Virus record (IMG/VR): IMGVR_UViG_2563366979_000001 | Location: 1-18,357 of that record | Source of the DNA: a virus | Taxonomy: Duplodnaviria > Heunggongvirae > Uroviricota > Caudoviricetes | DNA length: 18,357 bases | Direction: 5' to 3' (one strand) | Shown here: positions 9,379 through 18,357 of the stretch, piece by piece | How positions within the stretch are numbered: the first letter of the stretch is position 1 | How the letters are laid out: every line of letters begins with the position of its first letter | Made by a program: the position numbers and the translations under genes | The notes under the pieces: model-generated | What the model was told of the DNA's origin: nothing | The model's input: the letters and a program-made list of their open reading frames with translations, nothing else | Database searches by the model: none

Positions 9379-9515
9379 TGTTTGAGTTTTATATGGCAGA
9401 ACTTCTTCGCCACCGCTGGAGGCGTCTGCGATTATATCGTTTCCCCGGTTCTGTTTTGACCGATTACCGAATACTGAAGAATTACGCCAAAACCCTGACA
9501 GGAGCAGGAGTATGA
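9378..9515 (+). CDS. ylcG: YlcG small protein (45 aa), not in ORF track
   Basis: Manually translated: [48 protein letters not shown] overlaps the rusA stop (TGATG); same position as ylcG in K-12 DLP12. Confidence 0.65.
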   Translation: MFEFYMAELLRHRWRRLRLYRFPGSVLTDYRILKNYAKTLTGAGV

Positions 9516-9600
9516 AGTCAGAGATAACAATCAACTAATACTGTTTTGTTGATTTTTGCTTGTAATTGGCGTTCTGGTCTGATTTTTGTGGAGTAAGTTG

Positions 9601-9978
9601 ATGCGTGATATTCAGATGGTTCTTGAGCGTTGGGGAGCGTGGGCGGCTAATAATCATGAAGATGTGACCTGGTCGTCCATTGCCGCCGGTTTTAAGGGAT
9701 TAATTCCTTCAAAAGTAAAATCTCGCCCACAATGTTGTGACGATGACGCGATGATCATTTGCGGGTGCATGGCCCGTCTGAAAAAGAACAACAGCGATTT
9801 GCATGATTTATTGGTGGACTATTATGTCGGCGGCATGACTTTTATGGCGCTTGCACGTAAGCATGGGCGATCTGATTGTTGGGTTGGCAGGATGCTCCAG
9901 AAAGCTGAGGGCGTAGTGGAGGGTATGCTGATGGTGTTGGATCTCCGATTGGAGATGGATGCTGATTGTTCGAAATAA
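9601..9978 (+). CDS. quuD: Late-gene antiterminator Q (QuuD-like)
   Basis: ATG at 9601 with GGAG 7 nt upstream (ORF-track start at 9586 is a TTG); product [24 protein letters not shown]...[16 protein letters not shown] resembles DLP12 QuuD; position between ylcG and the lysis genes. Confidence 0.85.
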
Positions 9979-10076
9979 TTAAAGGAAAAGTTGCTGTCTG
10001 ATTGTCATTAGTCTAACATTTTAAATGTTGGAATCGCAACGTAGTTATTATCATATAACAGCTTGTTTCCTGATTT

Positions 10077-10105
10077 AGCCAGCCTCCCCAAAGGCTGGTT
10101 TTTTT
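10077..10105 (+). terminator. Intrinsic terminator downstream of Q (candidate tR')
   Basis: Stem CCAGCC (10079-10084) / GGCTGG (10093-10098), 8-nt loop, followed by seven T (10099-10105); oriented for plus-strand transcripts only. Confidence 0.6.
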
Positions 10106-10133
10106 CTAATAAGTATTATTTCGGGTAGGGATT

Positions 10134-10658
10134 TTATTGTTTAACCCATAATAATTCATTGACATTGAATCCCAACTTTTGAGCGGTTCGCGCATAGTCT
10201 GCTTTTACTTTATCTGGAATAGTTGGGGTCCTTGCCAGAATCCATAGGTATTCTCTGTTCGGACCACTGACAAGAGCATACTTATACTCATCATCCAGTT
10301 TGATTACATTATAGCCACCATAGAAGGGGCCAAAAAACGAAACCTTCAACGCTGCAGTTTTAGTATCTCCAGTAAAGTATGCTTTACCTTCGCTCTCGCT
10401 CCATTTATTTTTCGTTGGATCGTATCCACGGTTAAGTACACGAATCCCTCCGTCGTTCCGTTTTCCATAAGTAGCGCTGACCTGTTCCAGACCACGTTCG
10501 AACCGGTTCTCGAGGCGAGCTATTTCATACCATTTTCCGAGGTAGCGGTTGGCGTCAAAATTTGTAATCGGCTGCACACCTTTAGGTGGTGTCGGGGCCT
10601 TACATGCTATAAGAGTGAAAGAGAGTGCAATGCCAGTCAACACAGGCCATAACTTCAT
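10134..10658 (-). CDS. Bacterial lipocalin (Blc-like outer-membrane lipoprotein), divergent paralog
   Basis: 174-aa ORF; lipobox LIAC in signal peptide; lipocalin signature GKWYEIAR plus conserved SEGKAYFTG...LKVSFFGPFYGGYNVI...YLWILARTP blocks that match E. coli Blc as recalled. Confidence 0.85.
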   Translation of the reverse strand: MKLWPVLTGIALSFTLIACKAPTPPKGVQPITNFDANRYLGKWYEIARLENRFERGLEQVSATYGKRNDGGIRVLNRGYDPTKNKWSESEGKAYFTGDTKTAALKVSFFGPFYGGYNVIKLDDEYKYALVSGPNREYLWILARTPTIPDKVKADYARTAQKLGFNVNELLWVKQ

Positions 10659-10690
10659 AATAAATCCTGTACTTTTGATAGTTGAGAGTA

Positions 10691-10740
10691 AGTATGAAAG
10701 ATAGATGATTACGACCGATCACTTAAAGAACTTTCATACT
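10691..10740. promoter_or_regulatory. Perfect 10-bp inverted repeat AGTATGAAAG / CTTTCATACT separated by 30 bp, in the divergent promoter region between the lipocalin and YbgA-like genes
   Basis: Read directly: 10691-10700 and 10731-10740 are exact reverse complements. Confidence 0.4.
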
Positions 10741-10850
10741 ATATTAGGAATAGTCCATAACAGAAAAATTGTCAGTGATGACGCCAGAAAGGCAATTTAT
10801 TCCGTGCACTACACAGTTTATGTGTTAATGAATTAGTCAAGGGGGAGAAT

Positions 10851-11810
10851 ATGATAAAAAAACCTGTGATTGGAATCAGCGGTTGTTTGGCCGGTTCTGC
10901 TGTTCGTTTTGATGGTGGTCACAAAAGAGCTGACTTTTTAATGGACAAATTAGTGGAATGGGTAACATTCAGACCAGTATGTCCGGAAATGGCTATAGGG
11001 CTGCCAGTTCCGCGTCCTGCTCTACGTCTTGTGCGCTCGACGCAAGGAAATATACGGATGTGTTTCAGCTACGACCAGAATGAGGATGTGACAGAGAGAA
11101 TGACAGAGTTTAGTCGTTCTTATATGGACAAATTAAAGGATGTATCGGGGTTTGTGGTTTGTGCTAAATCTCCCAGCTGTGGCATGGAGCGCGTGCGTGT
11201 CTATGATGAAAATGGTAATCGAGGTCGTAAAGATGGAGTGGGACTATTTACGAGCACTTTGATGGAAAAGTTTTCCTGGCTACCGGTTGAAGAGGATGGG
11301 CGATTACATGATCCAGTGCTTCGTGAGAATTTTGTTGAAAGAGTTTTTGCTTTGCATGAGCTCAATCACCTTTACAAGGAGAAATTATCAAGAAGAGAGT
11401 TATTAGCTTTTCATAGTCGTTATAAGCTTCAGTTGTTGGCGCATAGTCAGGCAGGCTATAAAGATATGGGACCATTTGTGGCTGCAATACACGAGTGGGC
11501 GGACCTTGAATCATACTTTGAGGTGTATCGTGATAAGCTGATGGCGATTCTCAGAAAACCTGCATCACGTAAAAATCACACGAATGTGCTGATGCATATA
11601 CAGGGGTATTTTAGTAACTACTTAAGTACACGCCAGCGTAAAGAGTTGAGAGAGGTTATACTTAACTATCGTTCTGGCACATTGCCTCTTCTTGCGCCGT
11701 TGACTCTGCTGAAGCATTATCTGGGTGAGTATCCTAATGATTACTTGCTTACACAGAATTACTTCGATCCCTATCCGGACGAACTGGCTCTAAGACTGAT
11801 GGTAAATTAA
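10851..11810 (+). CDS. DUF523-DUF1722 protein, YbgA/RudS-family putative [4Fe-4S] thiouridine desulfidase
   Basis: 319-aa ORF with strong SD GGGGGAG; N-terminal block GISGCLAGSAVRFDGGHK...RPVCPEMAIGLPVPRPALRL...VVCAKSPSCGMERVRV with Cys12/Cys44/Cys104 spaced like the cluster ligands of TudS-type desulfidases; C-terminal half resembles the DUF1722 part of E. coli YbgA. Confidence 0.8.
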   Translation: MIKKPVIGISGCLAGSAVRFDGGHKRADFLMDKLVEWVTFRPVCPEMAIGLPVPRPALRLVRSTQGNIRMCFSYDQNEDVTERMTEFSRSYMDKLKDVSGFVVCAKSPSCGMERVRVYDENGNRGRKDGVGLFTSTLMEKFSWLPVEEDGRLHDPVLRENFVERVFALHELNHLYKEKLSRRELLAFHSRYKLQLLAHSQAGYKDMGPFVAAIHEWADLESYFEVYRDKLMAILRKPASRKNHTNVLMHIQGYFSNYLSTRQRKELREVILNYRSGTLPLLAPLTLLKHYLGEYPNDYLLTQNYFDPYPDELALRLMVN

Positions 11811-12161
11811 TTGTATGCGATATCATCCAAAAGGATGAGTTCCTGCATGCAGGATATTTACAATCGTAAAAACTACACTATGATACCCAGAGTGTCAGTT
11901 TGTATAAAAACTCTGTTTACGCTGAAGAAACCATTGAGATGCAACTTAAAGTTGGTAAACATGTCAGTCAAAATATATAATATTATGATTCCACGCAGCT
12001 ATATATAATATAACAGATTGGTTTAATAATTTGTCTTTGTGAGTTAAATACATAATTTTATACTTGTGATGCAATGAGATTTTCCTTATTGTTGAACTGG
12101 CGAATATTGATTTTCCACCTATACTTACCTGGTGTAACCCCAATGATATCAGGTGGATAAT

Positions 12162-12893
12162 ATGCCATACATATGTTCTATCATTTTGGTGTTGAACTCG
12201 TTTGATGTCCGAATTGGTAAAGAAGATATTTTGTTTAAAAAAGGAAGTGCTGTTCTCATTGATTACAATTTAAAAGATTTTTTTTCACCAAATATAGATC
12301 ATGTAATGATCGTAGATGTTGAAGAGAAAACAGTTAATGATTTCTTTAAAAGCAACACACTCTCACCTTTTTCTGTAAGAAGGTTTTATCCGGCATACTT
12401 GATGGTGGAATGTGAAGATTTTTCATTGTTAAAGAACTTGATTGCATGCTTGAATTGTGATGGCAGAACTGTGGATGTTGTTAGAAATCAAATATCACTT
12501 GCATGTCTTGCTATCTTATCTTCAGAGAAAATAGTGCAAAGTTTTTTATTTGGATGTCTTAATAGTTTAGGAAGTAAAGTTAAGGCTATTATTCACACGG
12601 ATATATCTGCAGCATGGAGACTTTGTGATATATCTTCAAGGCTGTATCTGAGTGAAAGTCTGTTAAAAAGAAAATTAAAGCACGAAGGCTTATCATTTAG
12701 TAAATTAATTCTTGAAGAGCGAATGGTGATGGCGGAAAGGTTATTAAGCTACAATTTATATTCTGTTGGAAAAGTTGCTGAGATATGCGGTTATGAAAAC
12801 ACGTCATATTTTGTAAGTGTTTTCAGAAGATATTTTGGTGTTCCTCCCCATCAATATTCATCAAGATTTTTTTTAGAAAAAGAAATGATGTAA
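12162..12893 (+). CDS. AraC/XylS-family transcriptional regulator, AppY-like paralog
   Basis: C-terminal AraC-type HTH (LKRKLKHEGLSFSKLILEERMVMAERLL...VAEICGYENTSYFVSVFRRYFGVPP); N-terminus alignable with AppY (YICS.., FKK); ATG 12162 preceded by AGGTGG (ORF-track start 12153 is a GTG inside the SD). Confidence 0.8.
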   Translation: MPYICSIILVLNSFDVRIGKEDILFKKGSAVLIDYNLKDFFSPNIDHVMIVDVEEKTVNDFFKSNTLSPFSVRRFYPAYLMVECEDFSLLKNLIACLNCDGRTVDVVRNQISLACLAILSSEKIVQSFLFGCLNSLGSKVKAIIHTDISAAWRLCDISSRLYLSESLLKRKLKHEGLSFSKLILEERMVMAERLLSYNLYSVGKVAEICGYENTSYFVSVFRRYFGVPPHQYSSRFFLEKEMM

Positions 12894-12954
12894 CGTGATG
12901 CGTTTTAATGATTTTGTGATTTTCGTATTTGATAATTGTATGATGCTTTCAGCT

Positions 12955-12986
12955 ACGCCAGAATAATCGCTGGCGTTTTTCTTTTT
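12955..12986 (+). terminator. Intrinsic terminator between the AraC gene and the holin
   Basis: Stem ACGCCAG (12955-12961) / CTGGCGT (12970-12976), 8-nt loop, followed by TTTTTCTTTTT (to 12986). Confidence 0.65.
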
Positions 12987-13082
12987 GAATAGATGTTCAA
13001 GCCTTACGCTAATGTAACTTCTATACCTTTCCCTCTTCGTTCCGAACCGTGTACACCATCCGTTATTTGCGGAGGTGAGACT

Positions 13083-13298
13083 ATGAAATCCATGGACAAG
13101 TTAACAACGGGCATTGCCTACGGCACCTCCGCAGGCAGTGCTGGCTACTGGTTTTTACAGTGGCTTGATCAGGTCAGTCCATCACAGTGGGCTGCTATTG
13201 GTGTGCTGGGAAGTCTGGTTCTGGGCTTCCTGACTTATCTGACAAATCTGTACTTCAAAATCAGAGAAGACAAGCGTAAGGCTGCGAGAGGTGAATAA
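13083..13298 (+). CDS. essD: Class II pinholin, phage 21 S-type (S21 71/68) with dual-start motif
   Basis: 71-aa product [71 protein letters not shown] is near-identical to phage 21 S / K-12 EssD as recalled; Met1-Lys-Ser-Met4 dual start; SD GGAGGTGA; the ORF-track upstream start at 12993 is rejected. Confidence 0.9.
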
Positions 13299-13504
13299 TG
13301 TCGCCATCATTACGCAAGGCTGTTGCAGCTGCTATTGGTGGTGGGGCTGTTGCCATAGCGTCTGTGCTTATCACTGGTCCGAGTGGTGACGATGGTCTGG
13401 AAGGTGTCAGCTACATACCATATAAAGATATCGTTGGCGTATGGACTGTATGTTACGGGCACACCGGAAAAGACATTATGCTCGGTAAAACGTATGCTGG
13501 TTGA
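13298..13504 (+). pseudogene. rrrD: SAR endolysin (R21/RrrD-type lysozyme) truncated after about codon 66 by a deletion
   Basis: 68-aa [69 protein letters not shown] then AG-stop; matches the SAR domain and E35/D44/T50 region of RrrD/R21 but lacks the remaining roughly 100 residues; start overlaps the essD stop (TAATG). Confidence 0.8.
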
Positions 13505-17607: not shown

Positions 17608-18357
17608 ATGGATTATGTTTGCTCCGTAGTTTTCATCTGTCAATCATTTGATTTAATTATAAACAGGAGAGTTATCTCGTTCAAAAAAAATTCATTGTTT
17701 ATTGTAAACGACAAAATTAGAAGGGAGTTACCAGTATGCCCCTCTAAACTAAGAATTGTTGATATAGATAAGAAAACATGTTTATCCTTTTTTATCGACG
17801 TGAATAATGATCTGCCTGGCAAATTTACTCTTGATAAGAATGGCTATATTGCTGAAGAGGAACCTCCATTATCGCTTGTTTTTTCTCTGTTTGAAGGGAT
17901 TAAAATAGCAGACTCACACTCCCTTTGGTTAAAAGAAAGACTATGTATATCCTTACTTGCCATGTTCAAAAAACGCGAAAGTGTAAATTCATTTATACTA
18001 ACAAATATAAATACATTTACCTGTAAAATTACTGGAATAATCAGTTTTAATATTGAGCGGCAATGGCATTTAAAAGATATTGCGGAATTGATTTATACGA
18101 GTGAAAGTTTAATAAAAAAAAGATTAAGAGATGAAGGAACGTCATTTACTGAAATATTGAGAGATACTAGGATGAGGTATGCAAAAAAACTCATAACTTC
18201 AAACTCTTATTCTATTAATGTCGTAGCCCAGAAATGTGGCTATAACAGTACTTCATATTTCATATGTGCATTTAAAGATTATTATGGTGTCACGCCATCT
18301 CATTATTTTGAGAAAATAATCGGCGTCACAGATGGAATAAACAAAACAATTGACTGA
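17608..18357 (+). CDS. appY: AraC-family regulator AppY; the TGA stop is the last three bases of the window
   Basis: 249-aa [36 protein letters not shown]... near-identical to K-12 AppY as recalled; preceded by about 540 bp of very AT-rich DNA. Confidence 0.9.

Follow-up and report, generated by a model that had tools for sequence, protein, structure and literature searches.

Gene and domain architecture of the rudS locus

The window, that is the whole 18,357-nucleotide stretch of DNA that was analysed, contained at positions 10851-11810 (plus strand) an intact open reading frame of 319 amino acids with an ATG start and a GGGGGAG ribosome-binding site immediately 5' of that start. This gene, here called rudS, was accompanied by a divergent blc-like lipocalin gene and an AraC-family regulator gene, and the three were bounded by the antiterminator gene Q and a holin gene of a lambdoid prophage. 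The features of this segment and the evidence for them were as follows.

9586-9978, plus strand: late-gene antiterminator Q of the lambda/434 QuuD type, upstream boundary of the slot (PHROG 79; RefSeq annotation in L001/L004; 88% nucleotide identity to 434 Q)
10077-10100, plus strand: candidate tR'-type terminator, a hairpin with a T-run in the interval from Q to the blc 3' end (consensus scan; putative function)
10134-10658, minus strand: blc-like outer-membrane lipocalin, divergent from rudS, first cassette gene (Pfam Lipocalin_2; NCBIfam Blc)
10851-11810, plus strand: rudS, encoding a 319-residue TudS-DUF1722 fusion (open reading frame and translation, Pfam, tblastn identity)
10869-11297, plus strand: TudS/DUF523 catalytic domain, residues 7-149 (Pfam; profile alignment to 6Z92; residue mapping)
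11424-11777, plus strand: DUF1722 domain, residues 192-309, tRNA-binding module (Pfam; NF007549 match; residue mapping)
12153-12893, plus strand: YdeO/GadX-like AraC-family regulator, third cassette gene (Pfam HTH_18/HTH_AraC)
12955-12976, plus strand: terminator-like hairpin with a T-run that ends the cassette just 5' of the holin gene (consensus scan)
12993-13298, plus strand: holin of the EssD type, downstream boundary of the slot (PHROGs holin families; RefSeq essD in L001/L004)

Two Pfam domains were detected in the rudS product. PF04463 (2-thiouracil desulfurase, TudS/DUF523) matched residues 7-149 over the full length of the model (E = 7.5e-40; positions 1-141 of 141; 136.6 bits against a cut-off of 34.7), and PF08349 (DUF1722) matched residues 192-309, likewise over the complete model (1-117 of 117; E = 2.3e-40). 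The order TudS then DUF1722 is the architecture of RudS, as the first-pass annotation had recognised when it described a TudS-like N-terminal half fused to a DUF1722-like half. With 319 amino acids and a DUF1722 domain, the protein lay outside the definition of a stand-alone TudS (a single domain of approximately 150-170 amino acids without DUF1722). It also lay outside that of a YbgA equivalog, a stand-alone DUF1722 protein scoring above the model cut-off: the NCBIfam YbgA model NF007549 matched residues 160-315 only, with 189.4 bits, below the cut-off of 237. The RefSeq name of the product, 'YbgA family protein' (WP_000592548-like), conceals the catalytic TudS domain. A single-sequence AlphaFold2 model of the protein had a mean pLDDT of 40 and a pTM of 0.28 and was unusable for superposition.

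Cluster ligands, catalytic residues and tRNA-binding residues

In a search with a five-sequence profile, the sequence of the TudS structure 6Z92 was aligned over residues 2-124 (E = 1.1e-6). The S-x-S-C motif was reached only with this profile, as a direct phmmer search against the PDB aligned residues 6-67 alone to TudS. In the profile alignment, C10, C43 and C104 of TudS corresponded to C12, C44 and C110 of the rudS product, and E45, S101 and S103 to E46, S107 and S109. The codons concerned, all on the plus strand, were located as follows.

10884-10886, 10980-10982 and 11178-11180, plus strand: predicted cluster ligands C12, C44 and C110 (alignment to 6Z92; PMC11417400 Table 1)
10986-10988, 11013-11015, 11169-11171 and 11175-11177, plus strand: predicted catalytic residues E46, R55, S107 and S109 (alignment, residue mapping)

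Three cysteines had been proposed as cluster ligands in the first-pass annotation. Two of them, C12 in GISGCLAG and C44 in RPVCPEM, were retained, but the third, C104, was replaced by C110 of the same VVCAKSPSCG segment. C104 aligned with K98 of TudS, and in an alignment of 11 sequences its column was occupied by Met in the three orthologues from Pseudomonas and by Lys in the one from Thermus. The columns of C12, C44, C110, E46, R55, S107 and S109 were invariant in the same alignment, and Cys12/Cys44/Cys110 are the ligands given for the phage and Salmonella RudS enzymes (PMC11417400 Table 1). The alignment to TudS and RudS that had been suggested as a check therefore brought the ligand cysteines, the catalytic glutamate and the two serines into register once C110 was taken for C104. 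Judged from this ligand set, the rudS product is predicted to bind an oxygen-labile [4Fe-4S] cluster.

The numbering of RudS_KT was transferred via three Pseudomonas orthologues (L078, L081 and L088; Cys17/49/114, R24-Y25-N26). Residues C17, C49, C114, E51, S111, S113, R60, R24, S243 and R244 of RudS_KT were identical in the rudS product, with R24 corresponding to R19 and S243/R244 to S239/R240. Y25 and N26 were replaced by F20 and D21; the same replacements occurred in the active RudS_vir and in all enterobacterial sequences aligned, among them a Salmonella diarizonae orthologue.

Relationship to published RudS enzymes

In a tblastn search of phage genomes, the rudS product was 92.8% identical over 319 amino acids to gp66 of Escherichia phage 1H12, with the same identity in ten sibling lambda-like phages of 1H12, and 99.1% identical to the copy in Escherichia phage IdasGreatGrand. 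Its identity to E. coli prophage copies was 99.7%. The 1H12 gene (H3V29_gp66, YP_009909557) is the one that was synthesised and named RudS_vir by Jamontas et al., NAR 2024 (PMC11417400). None of the 23 differences between the two proteins, which were mostly conservative, was located at a mapped functional site.

All six RudS proteins tested in E. coli decreased tRNA s4U, by 4.7- to 26-fold (PMC11417400). RudS_vir was active, although its tRNA desulfidation was weaker than that of RudS_ST at comparable protein levels, and it conferred the shortest lag among the RudS proteins on a uracil auxotroph given 4-thiouracil (PMC11417400). Stand-alone TudS caused no drop in tRNA s4U in vivo, and overexpression of stand-alone YbgA, unlike that of the fusions, left s4U unaffected (PMC11417400).

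The rudS product exhibited every RudS character that can be tested on a sequence, since the domains, ligands, catalytic residues and tRNA-binding residues were all conserved. We consider it very probable that positions 10851-11810 encode a RudS-type tRNA 4-thiouridine desulfidase, an allele of the published RudS_vir residing in a fixed lambdoid cassette, with the activity of this allele presumed. By analogy with the activity published for the 92.8%-identical RudS_vir (PMC11417400), the window allele would be expected to lower s4U in tRNA. The first-pass annotation had presented such an enzyme as an unusual, and by implication unexplored, cargo function. This did not hold, because 1H12 gp66 has already been cloned as RudS_vir and lowers tRNA s4U (PMC11417400). 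Since the family, the mechanism of the enzyme and a nearly identical member from a phage have all been published, the locus adds no new biology. A role of RudS in the phage life cycle was not found in the literature searched.

The window protein and RudS_vir shared their length of 319 amino acids, Cys12/Cys44/Cys110, the catalytic and tRNA-binding residues and the arrangement Q - blc - rudS - AraC - holin in a lambdoid phage. They could be distinguished by the intergenic region 3' of rudS, which differed, and by the AraC-like neighbour, which was just 82.5% identical; moreover, RudS_vir originates from a complete phage genome, whereas the window copy is located in a deleted prophage. RudS_KT (Pseudomonas putida PP_0741) and RudS_ST (Salmonella STM1389 / ORF319) are TudS-DUF1722 fusions as well, and the catalytic and cluster residues that have been mutagenised were conserved in the window protein, which had the same length (319 amino acids) and Cys numbering as RudS_ST. 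Its identity was approximately 43% to the three Pseudomonas orthologues and approximately 70% to Salmonella-type proteins. While the enterobacterial chromosomal and plasmid rudS copies examined were found in MerR-type or CFA-synthase/DUF3833 clusters, the phage copy was without such a regulator. TudS (PDB 6Z92) has a homologous catalytic domain, whose three cysteines, CPE glutamate and S-x-S-C motif are matched in the window protein. In contrast to the window protein with its additional DUF1722, it is a 166-residue, one-domain protein that does not de-modify tRNA in vivo. E. coli K-12 YbgA (b0707, ybgA-phr operon) is homologous to residues 160-315 of the window protein, but it is without a TudS domain and without an s4U effect, and the window protein scored under the equivalog cut-off.

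A moron cassette between Q and the lysis genes

The gene order Q - blc (minus strand) - rudS - AraC - holin - endolysin - spanin was observed in two phage genomes and in the intact prophage of strain WP4-S18-ESBL-07, and the order from Q to holin likewise in E. coli strains KOr019, F1140 and JKHS004. In phages and prophages alike, rudS was invariably followed by the AraC-like gene. Sequenced lambdoid phage records also carry rudS in the Q-to-lysis interval, which supports the earlier view of the gene as prophage cargo. The lipocalin scored 311.5 bits with the NCBIfam Blc subfamily model, above its cut-off of 267. The AraC-like regulator (RefSeq start corresponding to position 12162; GC content 31-33%) had YdeO as its best NCBIfam match and scored under both the YdeO and GadX cut-offs.

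The GC content of the cassette was 31-44%, and that of the phage genes on either side 49-55%. In many phages that have this type of Q, among them 434, ev243 and mEp332, only the Q gene matched and the cassette was absent. The cassette is a lambdoid moron in the Q-to-lysis slot: it is present in some and absent from other related phages, deviates in composition and has terminator-like sites at both ends. Known lambdoid morons of this slot are stx in Stx phages and nmpC in DLP12. The window cassette resembled these in its position between Q and holin, its deviant GC content and its bracketing terminator-like sites. Where the known morons encode a toxin or a porin, however, it encodes a tRNA de-modification enzyme together with a lipocalin and an AraC-family regulator.

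State of the prophage in the window

Only positions 2342-13495 of the window were collinear (99.5%) with the intact prophage, and none of the complete E. coli genomes in the collection had the entire window at a single location (best, 61%). To the left of the collinear part were an integrase gene on the minus strand (1-1164), two short phage genes and a fragment representing the C-terminal part of a gene. At the right end, the endolysin gene was cut to 68 amino acids and abutted an N-terminally truncated tail-fibre gene. Recombination, immunity, packaging, head and tail-shaft genes and most replication genes were missing. The window prophage is a deleted remnant. Its retained cargo comprised a 1303-residue inverse autotransporter, an esterase and the blc-rudS-AraC cassette. 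Since immunity, replication and structural genes are gone, a role in the late operon does not apply to the window copy as a phage. No Rfam family matched anywhere in the window at gathering thresholds.

Distribution, selection and origin of the cassette

Of 5426 complete E. coli genomes, 1140 contained the rudS region and 980 the whole Q-to-holin module, which was also found in 12 phage records. A comparison of the rudS alleles of the window and of 1H12 gave a dN/dS of 0.11 at a dS of 0.30, which indicates that rudS is maintained by selection within phage lineages. Insertion sequences were encountered in some cassettes, with an IS1 inside rudS in strain MINF_9A and an IS3 at blc in some strains.

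E. coli has been said to lack RudS (PMC11417400; also a 2026 review), its core genome encoding a stand-alone DUF1722 protein, YbgA, only (PMC11417400). The statement is true of K-12-type genomes but not of about one fifth of the complete genomes (1140/5426), and no recognition of this fraction was found in the literature searched. With so many genomes carrying rudS, near-UV growth delay, s4U levels and the outcome of s4U-based RNA labelling may differ between natural and laboratory strains.

Outside phages, the divergent blc/rudS pair was directly adjacent in Kluyvera chromosomes and separated by approximately 0.9-1.5 kb in Enterobacter, Buttiauxella, Raoultella, Kosakonia, Lelliottia and Huaxiibacter. 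In one Enterobacter locus (L017) and in a Salmonella IncF plasmid, this gap was occupied by a MerR/MlrA-type regulator gene and a transthyretin-like gene. In Citrobacter, rudS was the last gene of a DUF1365 - CFA synthase - DUF2878 - DUF3833 cluster, and in Pseudoalteromonas it was located 3' of an ECF sigma/ChrR pair and 5' of a photolyase gene. Light-responsive or photo-oxidative-stress settings of such rudS loci have been described (PMC11417400). The phage cassette has kept blc and rudS but is without a MerR/LitR-type regulator, having a low-GC AraC-type regulator in its stead, so that light control of the phage rudS is not to be assumed. Further RudS homologues were observed on conjugative plasmids.

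The nearest non-phage RudS (Citrobacter) was just 76-77% identical, with saturated synonymous divergence. The capture into phage was therefore not recent, and a recent chromosomal donor of rudS, sought among the homologues, was not found. An alignment of the blc-rudS intergenic region with the same-pair loci of Kluyvera showed no meaningful similarity that would reveal a conserved operator.

Proposed mechanism and role

Based on the established chemistry of TudS and RudS (PMC11417400; TudS structures), C12, C44 and C110 of the window allele would hold a [4Fe-4S] cluster, whose free fourth iron would bind the thione sulfur of s4U8. S107 and S109 would orient E46, which, assisted by R55, would deprotonate a water molecule, and the sulfur would be abstracted, converting s4U to U. 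The DUF1722 domain would dock the tRNA and may contact it through S239 and R240.

Lambdoid late transcription begins just 3' of Q and crosses the slot before reaching the lysis genes. From this biology of lambda, plus-strand genes in the slot are expected to be co-transcribed after induction. In this manner rudS would be read through during late transcription, and it is possibly expressed in the lysogen as well. UV induces lambdoid prophages via the SOS response and also cross-links s4U8 to C13 in host tRNA. The cross-link stalls translation and triggers the stringent response. RudS could be of benefit by relieving this s4U-dependent arrest of translation under near-UV, in a host species that has YbgA alone in its core genome; overexpression of RudS_KT relieved the near-UV, s4U-dependent growth delay of E. 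coli (PMC11417400). We tentatively suggest, as a possibility on the less likely side, that the Q-to-lysis site of rudS is not incidental, and that a late s4U eraser keeps translation going while virions are made in sunlit water or on surfaces, or else that rudS provides the lysogen with near-UV tolerance. That the cassette has survived in this prophage after the loss of the structural genes would agree with selection on the host side. If rudS is expressed in lysogens, about one fifth of E. coli strains would gain a near-UV tolerance that K-12-based work and reviews have denied to the species.

Other roles of the gene product were considered. The main substrate might be free 4-thiouracil or 4-thio-UMP, in TudS-like salvage or detoxification, with the effect on tRNA being a side activity of overexpression. 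The short lag of RudS_vir on 4-thiouracil, its tRNA desulfidation below that of RudS_ST at similar protein levels and the recycling of 4-thio-UMP by TudS enzymes (PMC10611767) are consistent with salvage. We nevertheless regard it as very unlikely, as no RudS matched TudS in supporting growth, and stand-alone TudS left tRNA s4U undiminished (PMC11417400). In addition, DUF1722 has been under purifying selection along with the rest of the gene, and S239 and R240 are conserved. Still less credible is a protein of the YbgA family that merely carries DUF1722, without desulfidase chemistry, to which we assign practically no chance. The RefSeq name and the NF007549 match point in this direction, yet the match is sub-threshold and confined to the C-terminal half, a complete TudS domain, equipped with every ligand and catalytic residue, makes up the N-terminal half, and the fusions are effective on s4U where YbgA by itself is not.

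The heavy deletion of the window prophage and the insertion sequences that break the cassette in some strains could be taken to mean that rudS is inert, carried along as a passenger and subject to decay in a cryptic prophage, with no function for phage or host. This is extremely improbable in view of the intact reading frame in the window and in five other E. coli or phage copies examined closely, the dN/dS between the diverged phage alleles and the retention of all catalytic residues. Moreover, lambdoid phages whose sequenced genomes have complete lysis and packaging modules also carried rudS. A desulfidase acting on tRNA s4U remains the preferred reading of the gene.

Sequence downstream of rudS

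Two dyads and a promoter-like site were located between rudS and the AraC-like gene.

11824-11854, plus strand: two dyads, a 5-4-5 hairpin (11824-11837) and a 14-bp palindrome (11841-11854), 14-44 nucleotides 3' of the rudS stop codon
11857-11884, plus strand: candidate promoter of the AraC-like gene, TTTACA-16 nt-TATGAT (10/12 consensus positions; scan and conservation; putative function)

The first-pass annotation had drawn attention to both dyads, CATCC-AAAA-GGATG at 11824-11837 and TCCTGCATGCAGGA at 11841-11854. Their positions were correct, but their frequency was at chance level and they were not conserved in 1H12. The window contained one perfect 14-bp palindrome against 1.4 expected (at least one occurred in 75% of Markov shuffles) and 24 hairpins of the 5-4-5 type against approximately 18 expected. 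In the 1H12 allele the first hairpin was lost, while the second dyad kept only five outer pairs, via two double changes. This preservation is suggestive, in a single diverged comparison. The window RNA 11811-11870 was predicted to fold at -20.5 kcal/mol, with a z-score of -4.3 relative to shuffled sequences, whereas the 1H12 counterpart, with a z-score of -0.3, was no more stable than its shuffles.

The dyads might constitute a functional element, namely a terminator of rudS, a 3' stabiliser or an operator of the adjacent promoter-like site. The predicted stability of the window RNA, the paired changes in the second dyad and the location of the dyads, which end 3 nucleotides before the -35-like hexamer of a conserved promoter-like site, would be in line with this. 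We consider such a function rather unlikely, since the dyads are no more frequent than chance predicts, no T-run follows the stem and the terminator scan made no call, and the first hairpin and the fold are lost in 1H12, in a comparison of just two truly diverged variants. The lambdoid prophage sRNA svsR was considered as a conserved element 3' of rudS and rejected, svsR being located at the 3' end of cI. Promoter-like matches were not enriched across positions 9500-13400 (13, compared with 11.8 in shuffled sequences). Both hexamers of the candidate promoter at 11857-11884 were identical in all five aligned cassette copies, and one spacer base differed in 1H12.

Deletion and additional cargo in the prophage

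The prophage in the window is a remnant left after deletion. Only positions 2342-13495 were homologous to an intact prophage. At approximately position 2342, the left-end genes meet a P-like replication gene region at its 3' end, and towards the right a shortened endolysin adjoins a tail-fibre gene lacking its N-terminus.

Genes at the ends of the homologous part
1-1164, minus strand: integrase, left end of the prophage
within 1-2341: two small phage genes, left part
2061-2321: gene fragment, left part
13298-13504: endolysin, shortened to 68 aa
13383-15665: tail-fibre gene without N-terminus

The prophage carried two additional, convergently oriented cargo genes.

Additional cargo
2672-6583, plus strand: inverse autotransporter, 1303 aa
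6620-7663, minus strand: BD-FAE-type alpha/beta hydrolase

The autotransporter combines an intimin/invasin-like beta domain with Big_1/Invasin_D3 repeats, and it scored under the cut-off for all NCBIfam equivalogs. The pair was also present in E. coli WP4-S18-ESBL-07, with replication gene P on one side and the nin region on the other. A 185-aa ORF (8365-8922, minus strand), antisense to the ybcN/ninB, ninE and DUF1364 genes, had zero matches in Pfam and NCBIfam and probably represents a shadow ORF, not a genuine gene.

Noncoding sites of the rudS cassette and AraC-family regulators

Two intergenic sites stood out around rudS.

Noncoding sites
10659-10850, 192 bp: divergent blc-rudS intergenic region
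11857-11884, plus strand: candidate promoter, TTTACA-16 nt-TATGAT

The blc-rudS spacer was nearly identical to that of Escherichia phage 1H12, despite an 8% nucleotide difference between the two rudS alleles; no meaningful similarity was detected to the equivalent Kluyvera spacer. The spacer may be a conserved regulatory region. Both hexamers of the candidate promoter were unchanged in all five aligned cassette copies, with divergent flanking intergenic sequence. This candidate would provide the AraC-like gene with an AT-rich leader of approximately 265 nt.

The window encoded two YdeO/GadX/AppY-like AraC-family regulators, sharing approximately 32% identity.

AraC-family regulators
12153-12893, plus strand: rudS cassette member, GC 31-33%
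17608-18357, plus strand: second regulator, continuing past the window end

E. coli regulators of the YdeO/GadX/AppY type govern acid resistance. The placement of the second regulator, 3' of the tail-fibre genes, resembles that of appY/envY at the end of DLP12.

The cassette was broken by IS elements in some E. coli strains. In MINF_9A (genome match H8), IS1 split rudS into a DUF523 part and a YbgA part, annotated separately; blc was interrupted or replaced by IS3 in Br_167_kylling (H78), OZ547614 (H80) and EF7-18-51 (H84).

Annotation of RudS and its plasmid homologues

The window rudS product is named 'YbgA family protein' in RefSeq (WP_000592548 / WP_000592549) and 'hypothetical protein' or 'COG1683' in phage records. 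Since neither set of labels names the TudS domain or RudS, annotation-based searches would miss the gene.

Plasmid-borne RudS homologues with 70-73% identity were common in Klebsiella, E. coli, Shigella, Salmonella and Enterobacter, amounting to 297 plasmid records (174 predicted conjugative). Neighbouring genes were examined on Salmonella pCVM19633_110 (locus L008) and a Klebsiella IncFIB plasmid (locus L006). The plasmid gene orders were MerR - transthyretin-like - RudS - AAA_21 ATPase and DUF3833 - RudS. A single E. coli plasmid record (CP061260.1) carried the phage-type rudS allele (99.4%).
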